In this document: positions 48,563-59,947 of the stretch, piece by piece
Numbering within the stretch: the first letter of the stretch is position 1
How the letters are laid out: each line of letters begins with the position of its first letter
Origin: an uncultured Candidatus Saccharibacteria bacterium
GTDB taxonomy: Bacteria > Patescibacteriota > Saccharimonadia > Saccharimonadales > Saccharimonadaceae
NCBI GenBank assembly: GCA_946408595.1
Contig: CAMJSX010000002.1
Span: 31,578-95,577, forward strand
DNA: 64,000 bases
Direction of reading: 5' to 3'
Program-made: the position numbers and the translations under genes
The notes under the pieces: model-generated
What the model was told of the DNA's origin: nothing
What the model saw: the letters and a program-made list of their open reading frames with translations, nothing else
Databases searched by the model: none

Positions 48563-49932
48563 TGAAAATCGCAAATAAAACTATTACTGCTACCAAACTT
48601 GTCAAAGAGGCATTAGAAAAAGCCAAGAAGTATGAAAAGTATAATGTTTTTACTTTTATCAATGAGAAAGAAGCTCTTAAAAAAGCCGCAGAGATTGATG
48701 CTAAAATTGCCCGTGGTGAAAAAGTTGGTCGCCTAGCCGGCGTACCATACGCCCTCAAAGATAACTTTTTATCACCCGAAGGCCAAACTACAGCTTCGGC
48801 ACACATTCTTCAAGGATTCACTTCGCCAGTTACTGCCACGTCAGTAGAAAAGCTTGAAAAAGAAGGCGCCATCATGATTGGACGCACCAACCTAGATGCC
48901 TTTGCGCATGGTTCCTCCACCGAGAATTCATACTTTGGACCAACCCACAATGCGGTAGACTTTGAACGTGTACCTGGCGGTTCATCAGGTGGTTCAGCCG
49001 CAGCGGTTGCTCTTGATATTGTTGAATTTGCAACCGGCACTGATACCGGTGGCTCAATCAGACAACCAGCTTCATTCAATGGCGTTTATGGTCTAAAACC
49101 AACCTACGGTTGTATTTCCAGGTATGGCGTCGTAGCTATGGCCTCATCGCTAGATTGCATTGGATTCTTTACCAAAACACCTGAAGATATGGATCTTTTA
49201 ATGTCAATTGCTTCTGGACAAGATCCAAAAGATATGACTACGCTACCAGATTATTATAATAATAGCAAAACTAGCAAGGCTAAAAGAATTGGCGTGATTA
49301 AAGATTTTGACAACGAAGCCGTAGCCCCAGAGATTAGAAAAGTTCTGAAAGAAAAATGCAAAGAGCTTGAAGAAAAAGGTTATGAGATTGTTGAGCTTGA
49401 AATGCCAACCCTAAAATATGCCTTAGCCGTGTATTATATTATTCAACCAGCCGAAGTGACTTCAAACTTGTCACGTTATGACGGCATTCGTTACGGGTTC
49501 CGCTCCGAAAAAGCCAAAAACTTAGACGATATTTATGACGATACGAGGAATGAAGGGTTTATGCCAGAAAACAAACGCCGTATTATGATTGGCAACTTCG
49601 TTTTGTCGTCTGGTTTTTATGATGCCTATTTCTTAAAGGCCGCCAAAGCACGTACTTTAATTGTCAAGGAGTATGAAGAAGCCTTCAAAAAATGCGACTT
49701 CATTCTAACTCCCGTTTCTCCAAACTACGCTTTTAAGCTTGGCGAAAAAGTCAACGACCCAGTAGCAATGTATTTAGAAGATTTAATGAGTGTATCCTTA
49801 AACCTAGCCGGTGTACCAGGTTTAGCTATCCCTGTAGGGAAGACTAAGGACGGTTTGCCACTTGGCTTACAATTAGTCGGTCCACGTCGTAGCGACAAAG
49901 CTTTGATTGAGTTTGCAAAGGAGCTTAACTAA
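48562..49932 (+). CDS. gatA: Asp/Glu-tRNA amidotransferase subunit A
   Basis: KDN, PGGSSGGS, TDTGGSIRQPA, NLSRYDG. Confidence 0.98.
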   Translation: MKIANKTITATKLVKEALEKAKKYEKYNVFTFINEKEALKKAAEIDAKIARGEKVGRLAGVPYALKDNFLSPEGQTTASAHILQGFTSPVTATSVEKLEKEGAIMIGRTNLDAFAHGSSTENSYFGPTHNAVDFERVPGGSSGGSAAAVALDIVEFATGTDTGGSIRQPASFNGVYGLKPTYGCISRYGVVAMASSLDCIGFFTKTPEDMDLLMSIASGQDPKDMTTLPDYYNNSKTSKAKRIGVIKDFDNEAVAPEIRKVLKEKCKELEEKGYEIVELEMPTLKYALAVYYIIQPAEVTSNLSRYDGIRYGFRSEKAKNLDDIYDDTRNEGFMPENKRRIMIGNFVLSSGFYDAYFLKAAKARTLIVKEYEEAFKKCDFILTPVSPNYAFKLGEKVNDPVAMYLEDLMSVSLNLAGVPGLAIPVGKTKDGLPLGLQLVGPRRSDKALIEFAKELN

Positions 49933-50351
49933 TGGACGGTTCAGTAGTCACTTTTATTATTGCAATTATCATCGTCGCGATTTTTATCTTTATTGCTATT
50001 GGACTAACTGGCAAACGTGGCCACAAGTTTAATGTCGAAGATTATCAAGCTAGATTCTTGTCAATCGAAAATAAATTAAACAAAGACAATTACGCCACTT
50101 TCGCACTTTCAATTATCAACGCTGATAAGCTACTCGACAAAGCCATGATTGAAATGGGCGTCCCAGGCAAAACCATGGGCGATAGGCTCAAAAAAGCCAG
50201 CGACAAGTTTTCTCAACTTGACTCCGTCTGGCGAGCACACAAACTTCGTAACATCATTGCCCATGAATCAGATTTTAAACTATCATATCGGCAAGCCGCC
50301 AATGCCTTGGCAATTTATAAGCAAGCCTTAAAAGATTTAGGAGCTATCTAA
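49932..50351 (+). CDS. Membrane-anchored protein with HEPN-like RxxxxH motif
   Basis: N-terminal TM; ADKLLD, GKTMGDRL, KLRNIIAHE. Confidence 0.6.
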   Translation: MDGSVVTFIIAIIIVAIFIFIAIGLTGKRGHKFNVEDYQARFLSIENKLNKDNYATFALSIINADKLLDKAMIEMGVPGKTMGDRLKKASDKFSQLDSVWRAHKLRNIIAHESDFKLSYRQAANALAIYKQALKDLGAI

Positions 50352-51763
50352 TGAAATACATCCCAACTATCGGCATCGAATGCCACGTCCAACTCTCTAC
50401 CAAAACTAAATTATTCTCAGAAGTTGATAATGATGCAAGAGGGAAAGAACCAAACTCCTGTGTTTCACCAGTAGATTATGCTCTTCCTGGAATGCTACCA
50501 CGACTAAACGGTGAAGCGATTAAGTTCGCTATTCGGGCAGGCAAAGCAATGAACTGCAAAATCAACGCTCATTCACGCTTTGATCGCAAACACTATTTTT
50601 ATCCAGATTCACCAAAAGGTTATCAGATCACTCAGTTCTATCAACCAATTATCGGGGCAGGTTATGTAGAATTACCATCCGGTACGAAAGTACATATTGA
50701 ACATGCCCACCTCGAGGGTGATGCTGGCAAACTCACCCATTTTGATAATTACTCATTGGTTGATTTAAACCGTGTGGACACACCGTTAATTGAAATTGTA
50801 TCCATGCCAGACATTCATTCAGCCAAAGATGCACATGATTATTGCAAAGAGCTTTGGCGCTTAATGTGCTTTGCTGGTGTAACTAATGGTGACCTTTATA
50901 ATGGCAATATGCGTTTTGACGTCAATACTTCAATAGCACCAGAAGGTTCTAAAAAACTCGGCACTAGAACTGAAGTTAAAAACCTTAATTCATTCCGTTC
51001 AGTAGAGCGGGCTGTAGAATACGAAATCGCGCGTCAAACTAAAATTCTTGAGGCTGGTGAAAAAGTCGTTCAGCAAACGCTCGGCTGGAATGATGCAACC
51101 GGTAAAACCACCGCACAACGTTCCAAGGAAGAAGCTAAAGACTACCGCTATATGCCAGAGCCAGATTTGCCACCGATTAATTTATCAGAAGAGTTTATTG
51201 AAAAAGAAGCAGCCAAGTTGCCGCCAATGCCAGCAGACTACCGTAAGAAATTTGGCAATGTAATTTCTGGCGACACATTAGAAGTATTATTAGACTATCC
51301 TGCTTTGATGAAAAAGCTTGACGAAGTATGTTCGGAGTATGTTAAGAGTATGTCAAATTTGTTTGCTTCAGTGTTACTTGCAGAAGAAAAATCAGCAGAA
51401 TACTTAAGTGATTTGCCATCCGCAAAAGATTTGAATGAACTTTGCGAGATGAACGAAAAGAAAGAGCTATCTTCTACCGCCACGAAGGAAGTTTTCTTAC
51501 GATTATTCGATCCTCAAATGAAAAATCGTGGCGCCAAGAACATTGCGAAAGAACTTGGCTTAATCCAGGAAAATGATTTAGGTGCGCTTGAAGCAATTAT
51601 TGACACCGTACTTCAAAAACCGGAAACCAAAAAGGCTCAAGAAGACTACAAAAATGGGGAAGAAAAAGTCATTGGCTTCCTCGTAGGTCAAGTAATGAAA
51701 GAATCCCACGGCAAAGCCAATCCATCAGCGGTGCAAGAGATTTTACGAAAAAAACTAAAATAA
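50351..51763 (+). CDS. gatB: Asp/Glu-tRNA amidotransferase subunit B
   Basis: IGIECHVQL, RKHYFYPDSPKGYQITQ, DYRYMPEPDL. Confidence 0.98.
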   Translation: MKYIPTIGIECHVQLSTKTKLFSEVDNDARGKEPNSCVSPVDYALPGMLPRLNGEAIKFAIRAGKAMNCKINAHSRFDRKHYFYPDSPKGYQITQFYQPIIGAGYVELPSGTKVHIEHAHLEGDAGKLTHFDNYSLVDLNRVDTPLIEIVSMPDIHSAKDAHDYCKELWRLMCFAGVTNGDLYNGNMRFDVNTSIAPEGSKKLGTRTEVKNLNSFRSVERAVEYEIARQTKILEAGEKVVQQTLGWNDATGKTTAQRSKEEAKDYRYMPEPDLPPINLSEEFIEKEAAKLPPMPADYRKKFGNVISGDTLEVLLDYPALMKKLDEVCSEYVKSMSNLFASVLLAEEKSAEYLSDLPSAKDLNELCEMNEKKELSSTATKEVFLRLFDPQMKNRGAKNIAKELGLIQENDLGALEAIIDTVLQKPETKKAQEDYKNGEEKVIGFLVGQVMKESHGKANPSAVQEILRKKLK

Positions 51764-51766
51764 GTG

Positions 51767-51795
51767 TTGACAAGTCTTTAATCGTTCTATATAAT
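51767..51795 (+). promoter_or_regulatory. Consensus sigma70 promoter
   Basis: TTGACA-17 bp-TATAAT, exact. Confidence 0.9.
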
Positions 51796-51801
51796 ACGTC
51801 T

Positions 51802-52452
51802 TACTCGGTGGGGAGCGTAATATAACACAGTTTGACCGTGAATGCCCGCGCGCCGCATGGCTTATGCCAGGCCCGGCAACGCTAGCCTGGTAAGTGCCAG
51901 CATCAATAGGCAAATGGTCATAAAAACTAGAGGGCAGCGCCCGTCTAGCATCGAGACGCAGTATCGGATACTGACGTTAAACTCTGAGTTATATGATTTG
52001 TTTTGTCATAAGGGACCGCCCTTATCACAAGAACAAATGCCCCCCACCGGGGGCCAGTACTTTAAAATGGGGTTCGTGAGAAAAAACGAAAATCTTACCC
52101 AAGAAAGGAGGCAAGGATATTTGGAAGACACCTTCATGTGCTTCTCGGTCCGACGGCCGAAGTTGGAAAGATTGAGTCAGGTATTTGTACCTGCAAAGGA
52201 AGCAGAATTCCTCCTAAGAACATACAGAACCAAGAAAAGACGGACGATTTCTAATGCAAGTTGTGTCAGGCCGAAACACCTGATGTTGCCACATCATAAA
52301 CTGCATCCAGAATAACCTAGTTTTAAGGTTACACGTTCAAAAAACTATGAGGCTCTAGCCTAAATAGTCATTGTAGGCAAAGATTTTTCTTCAAGAAGTT
52401 TTTCTCCTTATATACCCCTCCAAAAGCCCCGGCAAATGCCGGGGCTAATTTT
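51802..52452 (+). ncRNA. Candidate large structured RNA of unknown family
   Basis: At least 12 hairpins or nested helices between a consensus promoter and a strong terminator; no recognisable protein. Confidence 0.6.
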
Positions 52453-52454
52453 TT
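52424..52454 (+). terminator. Intrinsic terminator
   Basis: agccccggc-aaat-gccggggct followed by aatttttt. Confidence 0.9.
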
Positions 52455-52559
52455 ACATTTTTCATTGTTTTATGTTATAATGATGAAAACTATGTCTCTT
52501 GTTTTTGAGTGTGGAGCTTAAAAGCGGACGAAAAGTATAATAAATTTAAAAAGGAGCAT

Positions 52560-54659
52560 ATGGCTACTGAGATTAAGGACCTGTCGAAACTTCGCAATAT
52601 TGGTATTATTGCACATATCGATGCAGGCAAAACTACTACTTCCGAGGCGATCCTTTATCGTACCGGACTTAAACACAAAATTGACCTTGTAAAAGGCGGC
52701 ACTGGTGGTGCTGAAACCGACTGGATGGAACAGGAAAAGGAACGTGGTATCACGATTACTTCTGCTGCTGTGACCGTTTATTGGAAGAATCATCAAATCA
52801 ACATTATTGATACACCGGGCCACATCGACTTTACCGCCGAAGTAGAACGTTCACTGCGTGTGCTCGATGGTGCCGTCGTGGTGTTCGATGGTAAAATGGG
52901 CGTCGAAGCTCAATCCGAAACTGTGTGGCGCCAAGCTACCAAATATGGTATTCCACGTATTTGTTTCGTTAACAAAATTAACCAAATCGGTGGTGATTTC
53001 TACAAATCACTTGATTCAATTCACAAGCGTTTGTCCAAGAACGCCGTTGCCATTCATTTGCCAATTGGTTTTGAAAAAGATATTTGTGGTGTCGTAGACC
53101 TCATCGACATGAAAGCCTACACCTACAAAGATTATGCTGATCATGAACTTACCGTTGGTGAAATCCCAGCCGATATGGTTGAAAAAGCCAAAAATGCTCG
53201 CTCCATGTTGATTGAAGAAGCCGTCCAAGCCGATGAAGCCTTGATGGATAAGTATTTCTCACAAGGTGAAGAATCAATCACCGAAATCGAACTTAAAGCC
53301 GCTCTTCGAAAACGCGTACTCGACGGTGACTTCTTCCTAGTTACCGGTGGCGATGGCCGTGGTGTGATTGTTGAGAAAGTTCTCGACCTCATGACCGACT
53401 ATCTTCCTTCTCCACTTGATCGTGACCAAGGTCAAACCATTGGTACCGATCCAAAAACTGGCGACCAAATTGTCCGCAAAGCCGCCAACTCAGAACCTCT
53501 TACAGCTCTTGCGTTTAAGATTGCTACTGACCCATTCGTAGGTAAACTAATCTTCATCCGTGTATATGCTGGTACTCTCAAATCTGGTGATACCGTGATG
53601 AATGCTACAACCGGCGATAAGGAACGCATCGGCCGCTTGGTCCGTATGTATGCCAACGATCGTAATGAGATTTCTGAAATCACCGCTGGCGATATTGCCG
53701 CTGTGGTAGGTCTCAAAAACTGTACTACTGGTACAACCATTTGTAGCCCAGCCCATCCAATCTTACTTGAATCGATTGATTTCCCAGATCCACCGGTATC
53801 TATCGCAGTTGAGCCAAAGACTAAAGCCGATCAGGAAAAAATGGGCATCGGTCTTTCCAAGCTCGCTGAAGAAGATCCTACCTTCCGCGTTCATACTGAT
53901 GAAGAGACCGGCCAAACCATTATTTCAGGTATGGGTGAGCTTCACCTCGAAATCATTATCGATCGTCTGAAGCGTGAACATGGCGTCGAAGCCAACACTG
54001 GTGCTCCACAAGTAGCTTACCGCGAAACCATCCGTGGTGTAGCCGAAGCCCAAGGTAAGCACATCAAGCAGTCTGGTGGTCGTGGTCAATACGGTGACGT
54101 TTGGATTAAGTTTGAGCCAAATGAACCAGGCAAAGGCTTTGAGTTTATTGACCAGATTAAAGGTGGTGTGGTGCCTCAAGAATACCGCAAACCAGTTCAA
54201 AAAGGTGTGGAAGACACCTTGGCTGGCGGCGTTATTGCCGGCTACCCAGTAGTTGACGTTAAAGCGACACTTTATGATGGTTCCTACCACGATGTCGACT
54301 CCTCTGAGCTCGCCTTCACCCTTGCTGGTGCGCTTGCTACTCGCGAAGGTATCAAGAAAGCTAACCCAGTGTTGCTCGAACCAGTAATGAAGATGGAAAT
54401 TACCACTCCAGAAGAATTCATGGGCGACGTTATTGGCGATATCAACTCACGCCGTGGCCGCATCGACGAAATGGAAGACTTGAATGGTGGCGCTAAGCTC
54501 ATTAAAGCTTTCTGTCCACTCGCCAATCTCTTCGGCTACACTGGCGACCTCCGCGGTATGACCCAGGGTCGTGCAGCTTCTTCAATGGAGCTCTTCGCTT
54601 ACGAAGAAGTACCACCAAACGTAGCACAAGAAATTATTGAGAAAAGAAATTCGAAATAA
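52560..54659 (+). CDS. fusA: Elongation factor G
   Basis: [26 protein letters not shown]; RBS AAGGAG. Confidence 0.99.
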
Positions 54660-54711: not shown

Positions 54712-57700
54712 TCAACGATCTAAGAATTTCTTTCTTACTTGGAGCTTCCTTATAGCGCCATAGGAGCAAATCATTGCAACAGGAACAATCACGCTCACCA
54801 CTACTATACTTCTTTCGCTACCGCCATTCACATTACCCGTAAAGTAACCAGTATCCGGCACCGAAGTGAGAAGATAGAACGTCTCATCTAAATTCCCATA
54901 GTCTTCGTGCCTGATGAGCAGAGTCCCGCCAAGATATACATCTTCAAATATTACCACATCCATATCGGTAAGCCCAGAAGCATCAAATTCATAAACCATC
55001 TCGGTTTCACCACAAGTATTCTCAGGAATAAAGGTGATAGTTTGTTCAACGGTCTTACCATCTATCAATAGTGGTTTTTCGGCACTCTTATCCATCAAGA
55101 TACCTTTTACTTTATATTTAAGACCAGCCTTTAGACAATACCTCACTACGTCTCTAATCTTCACCACGCCAGAAGAGATTAATACGTCTTTGCTTCCAGT
55201 CTCCATATTAGTTGCATAGGTAGTCAAATCTATAATGTAGACAGTTTGGCCCTCATCCTCAATGTCCTCATGAGACATAATCAGATCGTCATCGTAATAT
55301 AACTTTTCAAAGACAACTAAGTCATGGCCTGCAAGGGAAGAAGTGTCAACTTCAAAGATCATTTCAGCTTCACCACATGCATCTGTTGTGACTACTTCAA
55401 TTGATTCCTCAATTATCTCGCCATCTTTCTTTAGAGCTTCTCCTGTTTCTTTATCCATTAGAACACCCTTAAATGTAAACGTCGTATTTGGTTTCAAACA
55501 GTACTTAATAGTGTCTTTTATTGTAGCTTTTTCGTCAGATTCAACCTGTTTTTTAAGAATTACTGGATCAACCTCTTCCTCTTCTTCCTCTTCTTCGCCC
55601 TCTTCTTCACCTTCCTCCTCACCATCTTGTTCGCCTTCATCATCTTTCTTCAAGTCTCCACCCATATCTATTTCTTCAGGTTCAGGTTCTGGCTCTTCTT
55701 CCTCTTCTTTGCCATTTTCAGCAAAGGTCGAAAAGTCAATCACACTAACCGTCTGAGCTGCATCATTAACATCTTCATGGGCAGCCACGATGCGATTACC
55801 TTGGTAAACTCTTTCGAAGACTACAATCTCATGGCCAGCAAGAAGTGAAGTATCTAATTCAAACACCATCTCAGCTTGCCCACAAGCACCTTCTGTAGTA
55901 ATATCAACTGACTCTTCAATCGCCGCACCATTTACCATCAAGGCCTCACCAGTAGCTTTATCAACTAAAGTACCCTTAATTGTAAATGCAGTATTTGGCT
56001 TCAAACAATAATTAATAGTATCTTTAATCTTTGAGGAAGGATTAATCTCGATGAATTTATCCTCATCAGCATTATCAACGGCAGTAGTGCCAAGACTTAT
56101 AATGTCAACCGTTTGTGCTGGATCATTAATGTTTTCATGCGTTACAACCGTTTTATTGCCTTGATATGCCGTTTCGAAAACTACGATTTCGTGGCCAGCA
56201 AGAGCAGAGGCATCAAGCTCAAAGACCATATCAATACTACCGCAATTCTCCGTTGGAGTAACTTTAACAGACTCTTCTACCGTAGCACCATTAATCATCA
56301 AGGCTTCACCAGTAGCTTTATCCATCAAAACACCTTTAATTGTATATTCCGTTCCAGCCTTGAGACAATAAACTATTCTATCTTTAATTTTTGCGCCAGA
56401 TTCAGCCACTACATATTTGTCAGCATCCTTGTTATCCGTTGCAGTAGTACCAAGGCTAACTATATTAATAGTCTGTGCTGCATCGTCAATATCTTCATGG
56501 ACGGCCACAAATTTATCACCTTCATAGGCTCTTTCAAATACCACAATTTCGTGGCCAGCTAAAGCAGAAGCGTCAAATTGGAAAGTCATTTGAGTTTGAC
56601 CGCATTCCTCAGTCGGGGTAAAGGTAATAGTTTGCTCAATAACTTGTCCATTTGAATCCTTAATAAATAGCCCGGTCGTCTTATCCATTAAAGTACCTTT
56701 AATAGTAAACTCCGCACCAACTCTAAAACAATAGTCTATAGTATCTTTGATTTTGGCTTGAGTCCCCGCAATAATGTTTTTATCACCATCTGAATTATCT
56801 ACAGCAGTAGTGCCAAGAGTATAACTAAAACAATCATTTTCCCAATTACCTAAATCAACCACTACGTTGTTGCTGCTTACCTCAAAGATTTTTTTCTGAG
56901 ATTCTATATCGATACAAGTATTATTTGCGTCACAAGAAAGCTCGATTATTTCGTAAGTATCATATGGCAGGGCACCAAGAGAGTTATCGGCAGCCGCAAC
57001 ATCGCTACTAGACGCACTTTTACCGAACCAAGTACCATAACCTTGATAGGTAATAGTATTAATATCGCTAATACTATCATAACCATTCGTATGATTCGTG
57101 TGAGCATTGACGCTTGATGCCGTATTTACTACACCATGTGAATCAGTCACTACGATATGAGATTCACCAGTAGTTTTTGAAGTAATTCTAAACGGAATAT
57201 TCGCCATCTCTTGACCATTTTGATCAACCTTCTTGAACTTCACGTCACCACGAACAACTTGGTTACTAAAAGTGACGCTGTAGCTAGTAGAACTATCTAT
57301 AGTTACACTGGAACCAGTAGTAGTTAGATAACCCATGCTGTTACCGACTTCTTCAACGTCGTAGTTTCCATAAGGCAAATTATCAAAAGAAACGCTACAA
57401 TCAGTGGCACCAAGTGTTTTTTCAGCCACCACGCCACCATTATTAATAGTATTGCCACCATAATTAATTGGATTAGCCGATTTATTAATCACTCGGAATT
57501 TAATGCCGGCAAATTTTGCCTTACCAAGTTGGTTGCAGGAGCCTAACTCTTTATCTTTTTTATAAACTGTAATGGAACCTTTTTTCACATCATCTTCAAA
57601 GGTCACCGTCTTGGTCTCACCATTAGTAGAAATAGTGACGCCTTGAGAAGCTGTAGCGGTCAAATCGTAGCTAGTATTAGTACCAGTCTCTTTTACTGAA

Positions 57701-58575
57701 TAAGTGCCGGCTGGTAAGTTTGAGAAAGTCGCTACGCCACTAGCATTAGTAGTGCCAGAAGCAACCAATGCACCATTATCATAGAATTGGTTGGTTTGTT
57801 GGCTATAAATCCGACTACCGCTATTATTATATACACTAAAGGTTATACCCTGAAGGCTAGCACCACCTTGTGGAGTAGCAGTATGAGTTACTGAATCGCG
57901 CTTTTGAACTTTAATGTTGCCAGCCTTATAATCGTTCTCAGCCCACATAATATCTTGGTACTCGCCATTATCAGCATAGGCTGTGCCACTTCGGTCGATC
58001 GTGTAAAGCTGATAGTTTTTAGCTATCACCCAAGCATTAGCATCACTACTAATTAGATTACGTAATTTAGTAATAATTCCATTAACCATAGACTGATCAG
58101 AAGAACTTAAGCGATGATAATCATTAGCATAAATCGCGCCGATTACCGCATGAGAATAGGCATAACGTTTATCGGCATCACTAATACTGCTAAATAAATC
58201 ATTCATTATTGGTCTAGTAATTGAGTTATCAACGGTAGAAACATAAATCATTAATCTGATTAGCCTATTATTCTCTGTATCTGGCAACTTTATGGCCGGG
58301 AAAGTACCTTCAAGTGACTTTTTGCTCGGGTTAGCACAATACCCAGTAATATTTTGGCCACCAGTAGTCACCGAAAAAACACTAGTAGCCCAACCCTGAC
58401 CATATCTAATACTTTCGCCCTTGGAAATTCTAACACTGGCACCATCTTCAGTAACCGCATTAACCTGGGATTGGACGTGCTTTATTGCACCAATCGCCAC
58501 ACTTATTAATGTAATAGCCAAAAAACTGGCTAAAACAACTTTTTTAAAAATAGTTTTTTTATTTAACAAAAGCAT
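54712..58575 (-). CDS. Surface adhesin: candidate thioester domain, 3 SpaA/CnaB-like domains, 5 VaFE/T-Q ester repeats, VPDTG anchor
   Basis: YCANP and YQDIM; KRD/KKD/KKVD domains; VVFE...HEDxxDxxQT repeats; VPDTGYF-TM-basic tail. Confidence 0.85.
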   Translation of the reverse strand: MLLLNKKTIFKKVVLASFLAITLISVAIGAIKHVQSQVNAVTEDGASVRISKGESIRYGQGWATSVFSVTTGGQNITGYCANPSKKSLEGTFPAIKLPDTENNRLIRLMIYVSTVDNSITRPIMNDLFSSISDADKRYAYSHAVIGAIYANDYHRLSSSDQSMVNGIITKLRNLISSDANAWVIAKNYQLYTIDRSGTAYADNGEYQDIMWAENDYKAGNIKVQKRDSVTHTATPQGGASLQGITFSVYNNSGSRIYSQQTNQFYDNGALVASGTTNASGVATFSNLPAGTYSVKETGTNTSYDLTATASQGVTISTNGETKTVTFEDDVKKGSITVYKKDKELGSCNQLGKAKFAGIKFRVINKSANPINYGGNTINNGGVVAEKTLGATDCSVSFDNLPYGNYDVEEVGNSMGYLTTTGSSVTIDSSTSYSVTFSNQVVRGDVKFKKVDQNGQEMANIPFRITSKTTGESHIVVTDSHGVVNTASSVNAHTNHTNGYDSISDINTITYQGYGTWFGKSASSSDVAAADNSLGALPYDTYEIIELSCDANNTCIDIESQKKIFEVSSNNVVVDLGNWENDCFSYTLGTTAVDNSDGDKNIIAGTQAKIKDTIDYCFRVGAEFTIKGTLMDKTTGLFIKDSNGQVIEQTITFTPTEECGQTQMTFQFDASALAGHEIVVFERAYEGDKFVAVHEDIDDAAQTINIVSLGTTATDNKDADKYVVAESGAKIKDRIVYCLKAGTEYTIKGVLMDKATGEALMINGATVEESVKVTPTENCGSIDMVFELDASALAGHEIVVFETAYQGNKTVVTHENINDPAQTVDIISLGTTAVDNADEDKFIEINPSSKIKDTINYCLKPNTAFTIKGTLVDKATGEALMVNGAAIEESVDITTEGACGQAEMVFELDTSLLAGHEIVVFERVYQGNRIVAAHEDVNDAAQTVSVIDFSTFAENGKEEEEEPEPEPEEIDMGGDLKKDDEGEQDGEEEGEEEGEEEEEEEEVDPVILKKQVESDEKATIKDTIKYCLKPNTTFTFKGVLMDKETGEALKKDGEIIEESIEVVTTDACGEAEMIFEVDTSSLAGHDLVVFEKLYYDDDLIMSHEDIEDEGQTVYIIDLTTYATNMETGSKDVLISSGVVKIRDVVRYCLKAGLKYKVKGILMDKSAEKPLLIDGKTVEQTITFIPENTCGETEMVYEFDASGLTDMDVVIFEDVYLGGTLLIRHEDYGNLDETFYLLTSVPDTGYFTGNVNGGSERSIVVVSVIVPVAMICSYGAIRKLQVRKKFLDR

Positions 58576-58762
58576 TTTTTTATGTTCCGTTTTTATGTGA
58601 TAACCTTTTACAACATGCATTATATATAATAATTATGCTTTTGTCAACATTTTTTTAAAAAATCCCTTTACATTTTGGTCAAAATAGTCTAAAATAATAA
58701 AGTAGAGTTTTGGAGCTGGTTTTTATTAGCGCTCCAAACATAATAATATAAAAGGAGAATGA

Positions 58763-59947
58763 ATGGCAAATTTTGACCGTTCCAAGCCGCACATCAACGT
58801 CGGCACCATGGGTCACGTCGACCATGGTAAAACCACTTTAACTGCTGCGATTACTACTGTTCTCGCAAAAAGACTCCCATCGGACGTTAACAAACCGGTG
58901 GCCTATGATCAGATTGATAACGCTCCTGAAGAAAAAGCTCGTGGTATCACCATCGCTACTTCTCACCAAGAGTACGAATCTGAAAAGCGTCACTATGCCC
59001 ACGTCGATATGCCAGGGCACGCTGACTACATTAAGAACATGATTACCGGTGCTGCACAGGTCGATGGCGCTATCCTCGTGGTAGCTGCTAACGATGGTCC
59101 TTTGCCACAAACTCGTGAGCACGTACTTCTCGCTCACCAGGTGAATGTGCCAAAGATCATTGTGTTCTTAAACAAAATGGATCTCGCTGATCCAGAACTC
59201 GTCGAACTCGTTGAAATGGATGTTCGCGAACTTTTGAACAAATATGGTTTCGATGGCGACAACGCTCCAATCATCAAGGGTTCTGCTACTAAGGCTCTCG
59301 AAGGTGACAAGGAAAACGAAGATGCTATCATGGAACTCGTCCATGCTATGGATGAATACTTTGATATTCCAGAACACGATCTTGACAAACCATTCTTGAT
59401 GCCAATCGAGGACGTCTTTTCAATCAAAGGCCGTGGTACTGTAGCTACTGGTCGTATTGAGCAAGGTGTTGTTAAATTGAACGACGAAGTTGAAATCGTT
59501 GGTCTTAAAGAAACTCAAAAATCAGTCGTGACTGGTATTGAGGCCTTCCACAAGACTCTCGACCAAGGTCAAGCTGGCGATAACGCTGGTCTTCTCCTTC
59601 GTGGTATCGAGCGTGATCAAATTGAACGTGGCCAGGTGATTGCTAAGCCAGGTTCAATTACCCCACACACCGAATTTGAGGCACAAGTTTACATCTTGAA
59701 GAAAGAGGAAGGCGGCCGCCACACTCCATTCTCCAAGGGTTACAAGCCACAGTTCTACTTCCGCACCACCGATGTGACTGGTGAAGTTGAGCTTCCAGCC
59801 GATAAGGAAATCGTAATGCCTGGTGACCAAGTTACCTTCAACGTGAAGCTCTTGGCTCCAGTCGCTATGAACAACAACGACCGCTTTGCTATCCGCGAAG
59901 GTGGCAAGACCGTCGGTTCTGGTGTTATCACCAAGGTGCTCAAGTAA
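58763..59947 (+). CDS. tuf: Elongation factor Tu
   Basis: [29 protein letters not shown]. Confidence 0.99.

Follow-up and report, generated by a model that had tools for sequence, protein, structure and literature searches.

The gap between gatB and fusA in a ruminant-gut Saccharibacteria genome holds a transcription unit of ~650 nt, and we were interested in what it encodes. The gap lies in a 64,000-nt stretch, which we call the window, of contig CAMJSX010000002.1 (assembly GCA_946408595.1, positions 31,578–95,577) from an uncultured Candidatus Saccharibacteria bacterium, placed by the relatives of its GatB protein among ruminant-gut Candidatus Saccharibacteria (Ca. Nanosyncoccus). A sequence-only reading had proposed a stand-alone, abundant and highly structured transcript, interpreted either as a large noncoding RNA (ncRNA) in the size class of ROOL, OLE and GOLLD or as an RNA-gated small-protein locus. 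We conclude that the unit is probably a monocistronic, very highly expressed, and presumably unusually stable mRNA for a 64-residue basic orphan protein found only in ruminant-gut Saccharibacteria (Ca. Nanosyncoccus).

A highly expressed transcription unit between gatB and fusA

The unit is preceded by a sigma-70-type promoter (51767–51795, + strand), in which the −35 box TTGACA (51767–51772), the 17-nt spacer, and the −10 box TATAAT (51790–51795) give 12 of 12 consensus matches; 0.03 exact TTGACA-17-TATAAT matches would be expected per window by chance. The sequence-only reading had described this promoter correctly, but it is not the sole exact copy in the window, since a second lies on the − strand (58647–58619). 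Judging by the usual spacing from the −10 box, transcription is predicted to start at ~51802–51803. At the other end, an intrinsic terminator (52425–52454, + strand) consists of AGCCCCGGC-AAAU-GCCGGGGCU followed by a U-run; its 9-bp stem (52425–52446) has eight G–C pairs, and the T-run extends to 52454. The proposed order of a strong terminator ahead of a separate fusA promoter was borne out, with the latter found at 52452–52481 (+ strand; TTTACA-18-TATAAT with an upstream TG). The promoter-to-terminator span forms a stand-alone unit of ~650 nt, of which 653 nt were used for folding. For comparison we retrieved, through GatB relatives, 80 loci from different species (L001–L080; further related loci carry higher numbers). 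The consensus promoter is kept in L001, L093, L094, and L081.

DNA metagenomes of bovine and other guts contain the region, which was also detected in 14 RNA runs from bovine and sheep gut. We mapped the contigs of four independent rumen metatranscriptomes onto 20 kb of the window. The only part covered by long near-exact contigs was 51815–52418, at a depth of 6–42 across the four RNA runs, with a 501-nt contig from run X7 (51844–52344), two contigs from X13 (51815–52034 and 52080–52418), and one each from X24 (51832–52409) and X25 (52017–52382). All contigs fall inside the promoter–terminator interval and end before or at the terminator. The depth on gatB was 0 in the same four runs, and the other genes of the 20 kb, including that for elongation factor Tu (EF-Tu, 58763–59947), were represented only by conserved fragments of ≤67 nt. 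A relative carrying a different type of the module (L050, type B) gave a similar picture in one run: The unit was covered end to end at depth 81, versus 3–7 on gatB and ~4 on fusA, and depth fell from 81 to 0–3 past the equivalent terminator. These observations establish the existence of the transcript and its large excess over neighboring genes. One X13 contig carries an Illumina adapter directly before 51815, marking a recurrent complementary DNA (cDNA) end.

The 64-codon open reading frame is under selection as a protein

The transcript contains a 64-codon small-protein gene that starts with TTG (52121–52315, + strand; MEDTFMCFSVRRPKLERLSQVFVPAKEAEFLLRTYRTKKRRTISNASCVRPKHLMLPHHKLHPE), whose product is basic and belongs to an orphan family. 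Within this open reading frame (ORF), all six differences from L001, the locus that matches the RNA along its length (95.6% identity), are synonymous. A database search returned a homolog, P0001 (66% identical), on a contig (L081) that reproduces the order of the window: gatB, consensus promoter, 5′ domain, core, ORF, terminator, and fusA. Between the two ORFs, differences by codon position number 14/11/28, and the ratio of nonsynonymous to synonymous substitution rates (dN/dS) is 0.12, versus 1.17 and 2.15 in the other two frames, which also contain stops. Distant modules have a third-position excess as well, with substitutions of 5/2/8 and 7/2/15 by codon position. The frame is open in every family member, even though amino acid identity between types is <25%; an N-terminal x-x-G-F-[LM]-x-F-P and a C-terminal [YH]-[RH]-K-h-x-P-x-stop motif are shared, and their codons vary synonymously. 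On the opposite strand of the unit, neither the window nor L081 has an ORF, and no ORF is conserved among relatives.

We considered a longer ORF of 157 amino acids starting at an ATG (51842–52315) and rejected it as the gene. The 5′ part of L001 differs from the window by indels of 1, 2, and 5 nt at 51853–51931, which break this frame, and neither of the metagenome relatives L093 and L094 has the in-frame ATG at 52067. Because these two relatives lack that upstream ATG, we take TTG to be the start codon.

The substitution patterns thus show, by comparison of homologs, an ORF under purifying selection as a protein. Together with the ribosome-binding site described below, the locus has the features of a bacterial small-ORF gene, namely a properly spaced Shine-Dalgarno sequence, purifying selection at the amino acid level, and a frame that stays open in homologs. 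A clear protein-coding signal was what the sequence-only reading had itself named as speaking against its large ncRNA. With a dN/dS of 0.12, six of six synonymous differences, and homologs in 19 other species, that proposal was abandoned.

Homologous ORFs of 53–68 amino acids occupy the same gatB–fusA position in 19 of the 80 related species. Of 81 gaps searched with a family profile, 20 contained an ORF of the family, in each case on the + strand and never on the − strand; at least 15 gaps lack room for the module, though a few of these come from contigs that end just past gatB. All metagenomic family members are located between gatB and fusA. These data show that promoter–ORF–terminator modules share the gatB–fusA slot in about a quarter of related species. 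Unit length is 580–700 nt in all module types, and the proportions of ORF and untranslated region (UTR) vary. The gap itself is hypervariable across L001–L080 (95–3360 nt). Many species hold other cargo there instead, such as a 139-amino-acid membrane-like ORF or ORFs of 160–530 amino acids.

Searches of Pfam, NCBIfam, PADLOC, and PDB sequences with the 64-residue protein gave no significant match, and DUF7480 was dismissed as a candidate (E = 0.03, far below the cut-off). A profile search of 5.8 billion protein clusters returned 15, the sole source name shown being a Ca. Saccharibacteria “hypothetical protein,” and an exhaustive HMMER pass over 1.84 billion representative proteins returned eight matches. 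The literature yielded no described small RNA or small protein of comparable kind from Saccharibacteria or other bacteria of the Candidate Phyla Radiation (CPR). The protein is basic and hydrophilic, without a transmembrane stretch. From its charge one might guess at a nucleic-acid- or ribosome-binding role, and autoregulation via the conserved leader would be a further guess.

The ribosome-binding region is the most conserved RNA element

Upstream of the ORF, an A/U-rich linker (CCAGUACUUUAAAAU) is conserved together with a small hairpin, GGG-[UUCG...CGAA]-AAAAUCUUACCC (both within 52053–52101, + strand). This part holds the sole sequence similarity to the distant relatives L020, L023, L045, L050, L062, and L067, which share just a ∼60-nt core. 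The core hairpin is flanked by GGG/CCC and followed by AAAUCUUACCC and then by an extended Shine-Dalgarno sequence. Pairing of its inner stem is kept despite changes across types (CGUG/..CG, CACG/CGUG, CGCA/UGCG, and a long insertion in L057). The Shine-Dalgarno sequence, AGAAAGGAGG (52102–52111, + strand), lies 9 nt ahead of the TTG start and is complementary over 10 nt to the canonical 3′ tail of 16S ribosomal RNA, an extent equaled in only one of 47 long ORFs of the window (most have ≤6). A strong Shine-Dalgarno sequence stands ahead of the start codon in every family member examined, with a spacer of 5–11 nt. Across the family, the small hairpin and the 10-nt extended Shine-Dalgarno sequence are shown to be the most conserved RNA elements.

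The sequence-only reading had noted an AGGAGG at 52106 that could pair with CCUCCU at 52210 and that precedes the 64-codon TTG ORF, and all three are indeed present. Inside the ORF, the anti-Shine-Dalgarno-like CCUCCU (52210–52215, + strand; context AUUCCUCCUAA) ranks first among the predicted partners of the Shine-Dalgarno sequence in the full-length ensemble of the window (p ∼0.39). The predicted partner in L081 is a pre-terminator CCCUCC (p ∼0.51). The mean predicted probability of the Shine-Dalgarno sequence being unpaired is 0.52 in the window and 0.21 in L081. The UUCCUCCNAAA motif occurs in 14 of 14 family transcripts examined, and CCUCC-type motifs number two to six per transcript, versus 0.17 expected per 650 nt. 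A C/U-rich stretch, CUCCUU...CCCCUCC (52404–52421, + strand), lies directly upstream of the terminator and is conserved in L081, where it supplies the predicted Shine-Dalgarno partner.

The 3′ UTR contains a hairpin that overlaps the stop codon (UAACCU/AGGUUA, 52314–52319/52326–52331, + strand) and another formed by ACUAU..AUAGU (52344–52368, + strand). A hairpin at or just past the stop codon was seen in each family type inspected by eye, with poorly conserved sequences.

Several relatives have pairing elements of their own. The 3′ UTRs of the type-B loci L045, L050, and L062 hold three to five copies of CAU-N6-9-CUCCUUUCU, whose reverse complement reads as a Shine-Dalgarno sequence plus AUG; minus-strand ORFs behind these copies are not conserved. 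A 5′ UTR segment of L020, L023, L045, L050, and L062, CUUGCGGCUCUUCGCAAGAGCCG, can fold into either of two hairpins that exclude each other, and each stays paired through base changes; these predicted alternatives suggest a possible RNA switch. In L015, L028, L043, L055, and L029, the 5′ hairpin is directly followed by a UGUGUUAUUAAAACGA element whose complement lies in the 3′ UTR, ∼400 nt downstream, with varying sequences; taken singly, each of these duplexes is no longer than those of shuffled controls. The same holds for the window, where the best 5′–3′ long-range duplex (52059–52068/52320–52329) did not exceed shuffled controls in length.

Compensatory changes preserve the helices of the 5′ domain

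The 653-nt unit has a predicted folding energy of −213.8 kcal/mol versus −170.7 ± 7.6 for shuffled sequences (z = −5.7); the 5′ UTR alone gives z = −5.5, and the centroid is about the same as the minimum-free-energy structure. Because the − strand scores equally well (z = −5.6), the fold z-score is no guide to the transcribed strand. The predicted fold places a structured 5′ domain of ∼250 nt at 51802–52052 (+ strand). Its closing helix, P1 (10 bp, 51804–51813/52042–52051), begins 1–2 nt after the predicted start and encloses a variable multi-hairpin subdomain (51820–51994), itself closed by a 7-bp AUAUAAC/GUUAUAU and a 3-bp CAG/CUG stem, and a long hairpin, P3 (51996–52038). Nearly all 5′ helices listed in the sequence-only reading recur in the minimum-free-energy fold (UGACCGU/AUGGUCA, UGGC/GCCA, UGCCAGGC/GCCUGGUA, CUAGA-GGGC/GCCC-UCUAG, CAGUAU/AUACUG, and the long hairpin at 51996–52038), but its GCCCCC/GGGGGC pairing gives way to the long-range helix P1.

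A whole-RNA search of the 80 related loci aligned only L001 along its length and the ∼60-nt core elsewhere. Alignment-based covariation over the whole unit was therefore impossible, and we instead compared folded homologs, folding the window and L081 independently before matching their helices. The 5′ architecture of L081 is that of the window, with P1, a multi-hairpin subdomain, and P3. Its subdomain closing stems (AGUGUAG/CUACACU and GCA/UGC) differ from those of the window on both sides at eight of 10 pairs, with five of seven such pairs in the 7-bp stem. A single change in L001, C52041U, lengthens P1 to 13 bp. These comparisons of predicted folds show a 5′ domain that keeps its helices through compensatory changes. 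We rejected a coding role for this domain, given the frame-breaking indels of L001 described above.

Identity between the window and L081 is uneven along the unit. It is lowest in the variable subdomain (37%, 51820–51994) and the 3′ UTR (41%, 52316–52403) and rises to 76% in P3 (51995–52040), to 79% across the 3′ strand of P1, linker, core, and Shine-Dalgarno sequence (52041–52120), to 73% in the ORF (52121–52315), and to 71% in the C/U-rich stretch and terminator (52404–52454). Types A and B, with a 5′ UTR of only ∼120 nt, lack the large 5′ subdomain.

No match to known RNA classes

A cmscan search of the whole window against Rfam at the gathering threshold found only a tRNA. When 51600–52600 was scanned at E ≤ 10, only sub-threshold matches appeared, nearly all driven by the terminator hairpin, and none to ROOL, GOLLD, OLE, HEARO, or raiA was listed. 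Twelve related loci likewise gave no Rfam match, and ARAGORN found no transfer-messenger RNA (tmRNA). The sequence-only reading had recognized no tmRNA, RNase P, or riboswitch signature, and these searches agree with it. They also agree with its description of a stand-alone, abundant, highly structured transcript outside Rfam families, to which the metatranscriptomes and the z-score of −5.7 add their part. We rejected a housekeeping RNA (tmRNA, RNase P, signal recognition particle RNA, 6S): ARAGORN and Rfam gave no match, and the locus lacks the element in most related species, so that an essential RNA at this site would be a misfit. A known riboswitch or cis-regulatory leader was rejected too, since neither the window nor the 12 loci matched an Rfam aptamer or leader model. 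Among aptamer-type features, the subdomain has no sequence conservation, the linker–hairpin–Shine-Dalgarno block is conserved, and the Shine-Dalgarno sequence is predicted to be partly paired.

ROOL, GOLLD, and OLE are large ornate RNAs with Rfam families of their own (PMC5737381, PMC12286853), and ROOL was first found in rumen metagenomes (PMC5737381). Our transcript resembles them in size class, high predicted structure, and abundance, and ROOL also in its rumen habitat. It differs in lacking a covariance-model match, in carrying an ORF under purifying selection, in the poor conservation of most of its folded part, and in having no phage or tRNA-cluster context. A distant-mode blastn search for phage similarity gave no match, and a pattern scan of viral contigs gave one chance match inside a coding region. 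Membership in the ROOL/OLE/GOLLD class, as first suggested, does not fit a coding RNA that matches no such model at E ≤ 10 and whose large subdomain is only 37% identical to that of L081.

A putatively stabilized mRNA and its alternatives

The picture that we consider probable is that of an mRNA built for high output. The consensus promoter would give high transcription; the 5′ domain, with its closing helix 1–2 nt from the predicted start, would guard against 5′-end-dependent decay; and the terminator hairpin would shield the 3′ end. The extended Shine-Dalgarno sequence would grip 30S subunits, both driving translation and shielding the RNA in a STAB-SD-like manner, and the conserved CCUCC motifs (52210–52215 and 52415–52421) could pair with it to tune or gate initiation. 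The unit has the sequence features of a 5′ stabilizer, an extended Shine-Dalgarno sequence and a helix a few nucleotides from the 5′ end as placed by the −10 box. Of the two options in the sequence-only reading, the second, a small-protein locus lodged in structured RNA, describes the unit better, with gating as a hypothetical property.

Several points weigh against this interpretation. Translation of the 64-codon ORF, stabilization, and Shine-Dalgarno sequestration are all read from sequence signals alone, and the Shine-Dalgarno sequence has different predicted partners in the window and in L081. The RNA contigs are unstranded, and the + strand is assigned from promoter, terminator, ORF, and conservation. 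The recurrent cDNA end at 51815 falls inside the P1 helix, 12 nt into a predicted transcript whose start site is deduced. An AlphaFold2 model of the small protein reached a mean predicted local distance difference test score (pLDDT) of 54.8, too low to be used for an activity or fold search. Finally, a ∼250-nt 5′ domain that keeps its helices and a unit length held at 580–700 nt exceed what simple stabilization would need.

These last features also speak for a dual-function RNA, in which the small-protein mRNA would also act as RNA, like RNAIII of Staphylococcus aureus. We regard this as possible, if rather unlikely. Its CCUCC/CUCCUU motifs might pair with the ribosome-binding sites of other mRNAs, it might titrate 30S subunits by means of its very strong Shine-Dalgarno sequence, or a defined global fold might be closed by 5′–3′ pairing. 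High abundance, the conserved unit length, and a 5′ domain whose structure is kept compensatorily while its sequence varies freely all favor such a role, as do the excess of anti-Shine-Dalgarno-like motifs (two to six per transcript vs. 0.17), the type-B CAU-N6-9-CUCCUUUCU copies, and the recurrent 5′–3′ complementarity in types D and F. Yet the targets are hypothetical, the variable subdomain and 3′ UTR are only ∼40% identical between homologs, each long-range duplex by itself is no longer than in shuffled controls, and cis explanations (stability and Shine-Dalgarno self-sequestration) cover the same motifs. A broader version, a CPR-specific family of ∼600–700-nt bifunctional RNAs with ribosome/30S titration or global translational control as the second RNA role, we entertain only tentatively and consider rather doubtful, too; that second role would stem from the maintained 5′ domain, the extended Shine-Dalgarno sequence, and the repeated motifs able to pair with Shine-Dalgarno sequences or ribosome-binding sites. 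A 5′ UTR sensor that opens and closes the Shine-Dalgarno sequence, whether riboswitch, thermosensor, or binding site of the encoded protein, seems improbable to us. The linker–hairpin–Shine-Dalgarno block is more conserved than the ORF (79% vs. 73% between the window and L081), the Shine-Dalgarno sequence is predicted to be partly paired in both (mean unpaired probability 0.52 and 0.21), and each of the two mutually exclusive hairpins of types A and B stays paired through base changes; however, Rfam holds no matching riboswitch, and the large subdomain (37%) has no aptamer-like conserved junction or loop nucleotides and is missing in types A and B.

We disfavor a pure ncRNA as well as an attenuator of fusA, a known riboswitch, and a type I toxin–antitoxin system, each of which lacks at least one of the defining features tested. 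A leader-peptide attenuator, in which translation of or stalling on the small ORF would modulate terminator read-through into fusA, would account for the module always being directly upstream of the elongation factor G (EF-G) paralog, and the C-terminal K-h-x-P-x-stop with its stop-codon hairpin resembles the arrangement of arrest peptides. We nevertheless find it very unlikely, as fusA is served by a promoter of its own and a conserved leader, both also present in species without the module, the distance from stop codon to downstream terminator is 110 nt in the window and 290–390 nt in other types, and RNA depth drops to ∼0 after the terminator (81 to 0–3 in L050). A large ncRNA of the ROOL/GOLLD/OLE size class with a fortuitous ORF is extremely unlikely: Its length of ∼650 nt, rumen origin, strong fold z-score, and abundance are those expected, but the ORF frame gives a clear coding signal (dN/dS = 0.12), no covariance model matches at E ≤ 10, phage association is lacking, and most of the folded sequence is not conserved. 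We give equally little credence to a toxic peptide controlled by an antisense RNA. Such a type I toxin–antitoxin system would agree with the small size of the ORF, its place in a stable and structured mRNA, a Shine-Dalgarno sequence that may be sequestered, and the fast evolution and patchy, accessory occurrence of the locus; the protein, however, is basic and hydrophilic without a transmembrane stretch, PADLOC and Pfam gave no toxin match, the minus strand offers no convincing promoter and no conserved feature, and toxin mRNAs are not typically expressed at so high a level.

Comparison with characterized systems

RNAIII of S. aureus, which encodes hld, and SR1/SR1P of Bacillus subtilis are dual-function small RNAs. 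The transcript described here is likewise a 500–650-nt structured, very abundant, stand-alone RNA with its own promoter and terminator, and it has a short, putatively translated ORF in mid-transcript together with C/U-rich motifs able to pair with Shine-Dalgarno sequences. Unlike RNAIII and SR1, to which it has no sequence or covariance-model kinship, its regulatory targets are hypothetical; its ORF is larger (64 amino acids) and is the best-conserved part apart from the ribosome-binding region, and the family is confined to CPR bacteria. A second parallel is provided by 5′ stabilizers of mRNA, such as the STAB-SD of Bacillus thuringiensis cryIIIA (GAAAGGAGG) and the 5′-terminal stem–loop of Escherichia coli ompA. 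Shared with these are an extended Shine-Dalgarno sequence with a GAAAGGAGG core, a helix 1–2 nt from the predicted 5′ end, and a transcript that outnumbers its neighbors. In contrast to STAB-SD, the Shine-Dalgarno sequence here is the ORF's own ribosome-binding site, ∼300 nt from the 5′ end; and in contrast to single-hairpin stabilizers, the 5′ element is a multi-helix structure of ∼250 nt with a putative stabilizing effect; the excess seen over neighboring genes is one of steady-state levels. As in autoregulated leaders of the ribosomal-protein type, the mRNA of a small basic protein carries a conserved structured element across its ribosome-binding site; here, however, the product is no recognized ribosomal protein, and its binding to its own leader is conjectural. 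By analogy, RNAIII-type coding small RNAs and 5′-stabilized mRNAs may offer the closest likeness in mode of action.

Neighboring genes and biological significance

Downstream from the unit, the EF-G-like gene, here called fusA (52560–54659), has all five EF-G Pfam domains and its own promoter, with a leader region at 52452–52559. Part of this leader, GUCUCUUGUUUUUGAGUGUGGAGCUU (52493–52519), recurs in most of the related gap sequences read, including several without the small-ORF module, and is a candidate cis-regulatory leader. The EF-G paralog evolves much faster than GatB (43%–61% vs. 79%–89% amino acid identity across species, L003–L080); in L093 it is 87% identical versus 98% for GatB. 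Upstream, an ORF of 139 amino acids (49932–50351, + strand) lies between gatA and gatB, overlapping both stop/start junctions, and has no significant Pfam match. The second exact TTGACA-17-TATAAT promoter of the window (58619–58647, − strand) precedes an ORF of 1302 amino acids (54712–58620, − strand) with TQ-ester, thioester, and SpaA-type domains, which looks like a covalent adhesin, plausible for an episymbiont.

Saccharibacteria are ultrasmall, host-dependent bacteria with reduced genomes, and many of their genes have no known function. The hypervariable slot beside a fast-evolving EF-G paralog, occupied by the module in about a quarter of related species, fits an accessory, rapidly evolving function, for example, in host interaction or translation control. 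The small-ORF transcript is a concrete, highly expressed target for work on small proteins and RNA in CPR bacteria, and its analysis takes one false candidate off the list of giant ncRNAs. It encodes a previously undescribed protein family and belongs to no curated RNA or protein family. If it were a bifunctional RNA of an ultrasmall episymbiont, Saccharibacteria would gain their first described riboregulator of this type.

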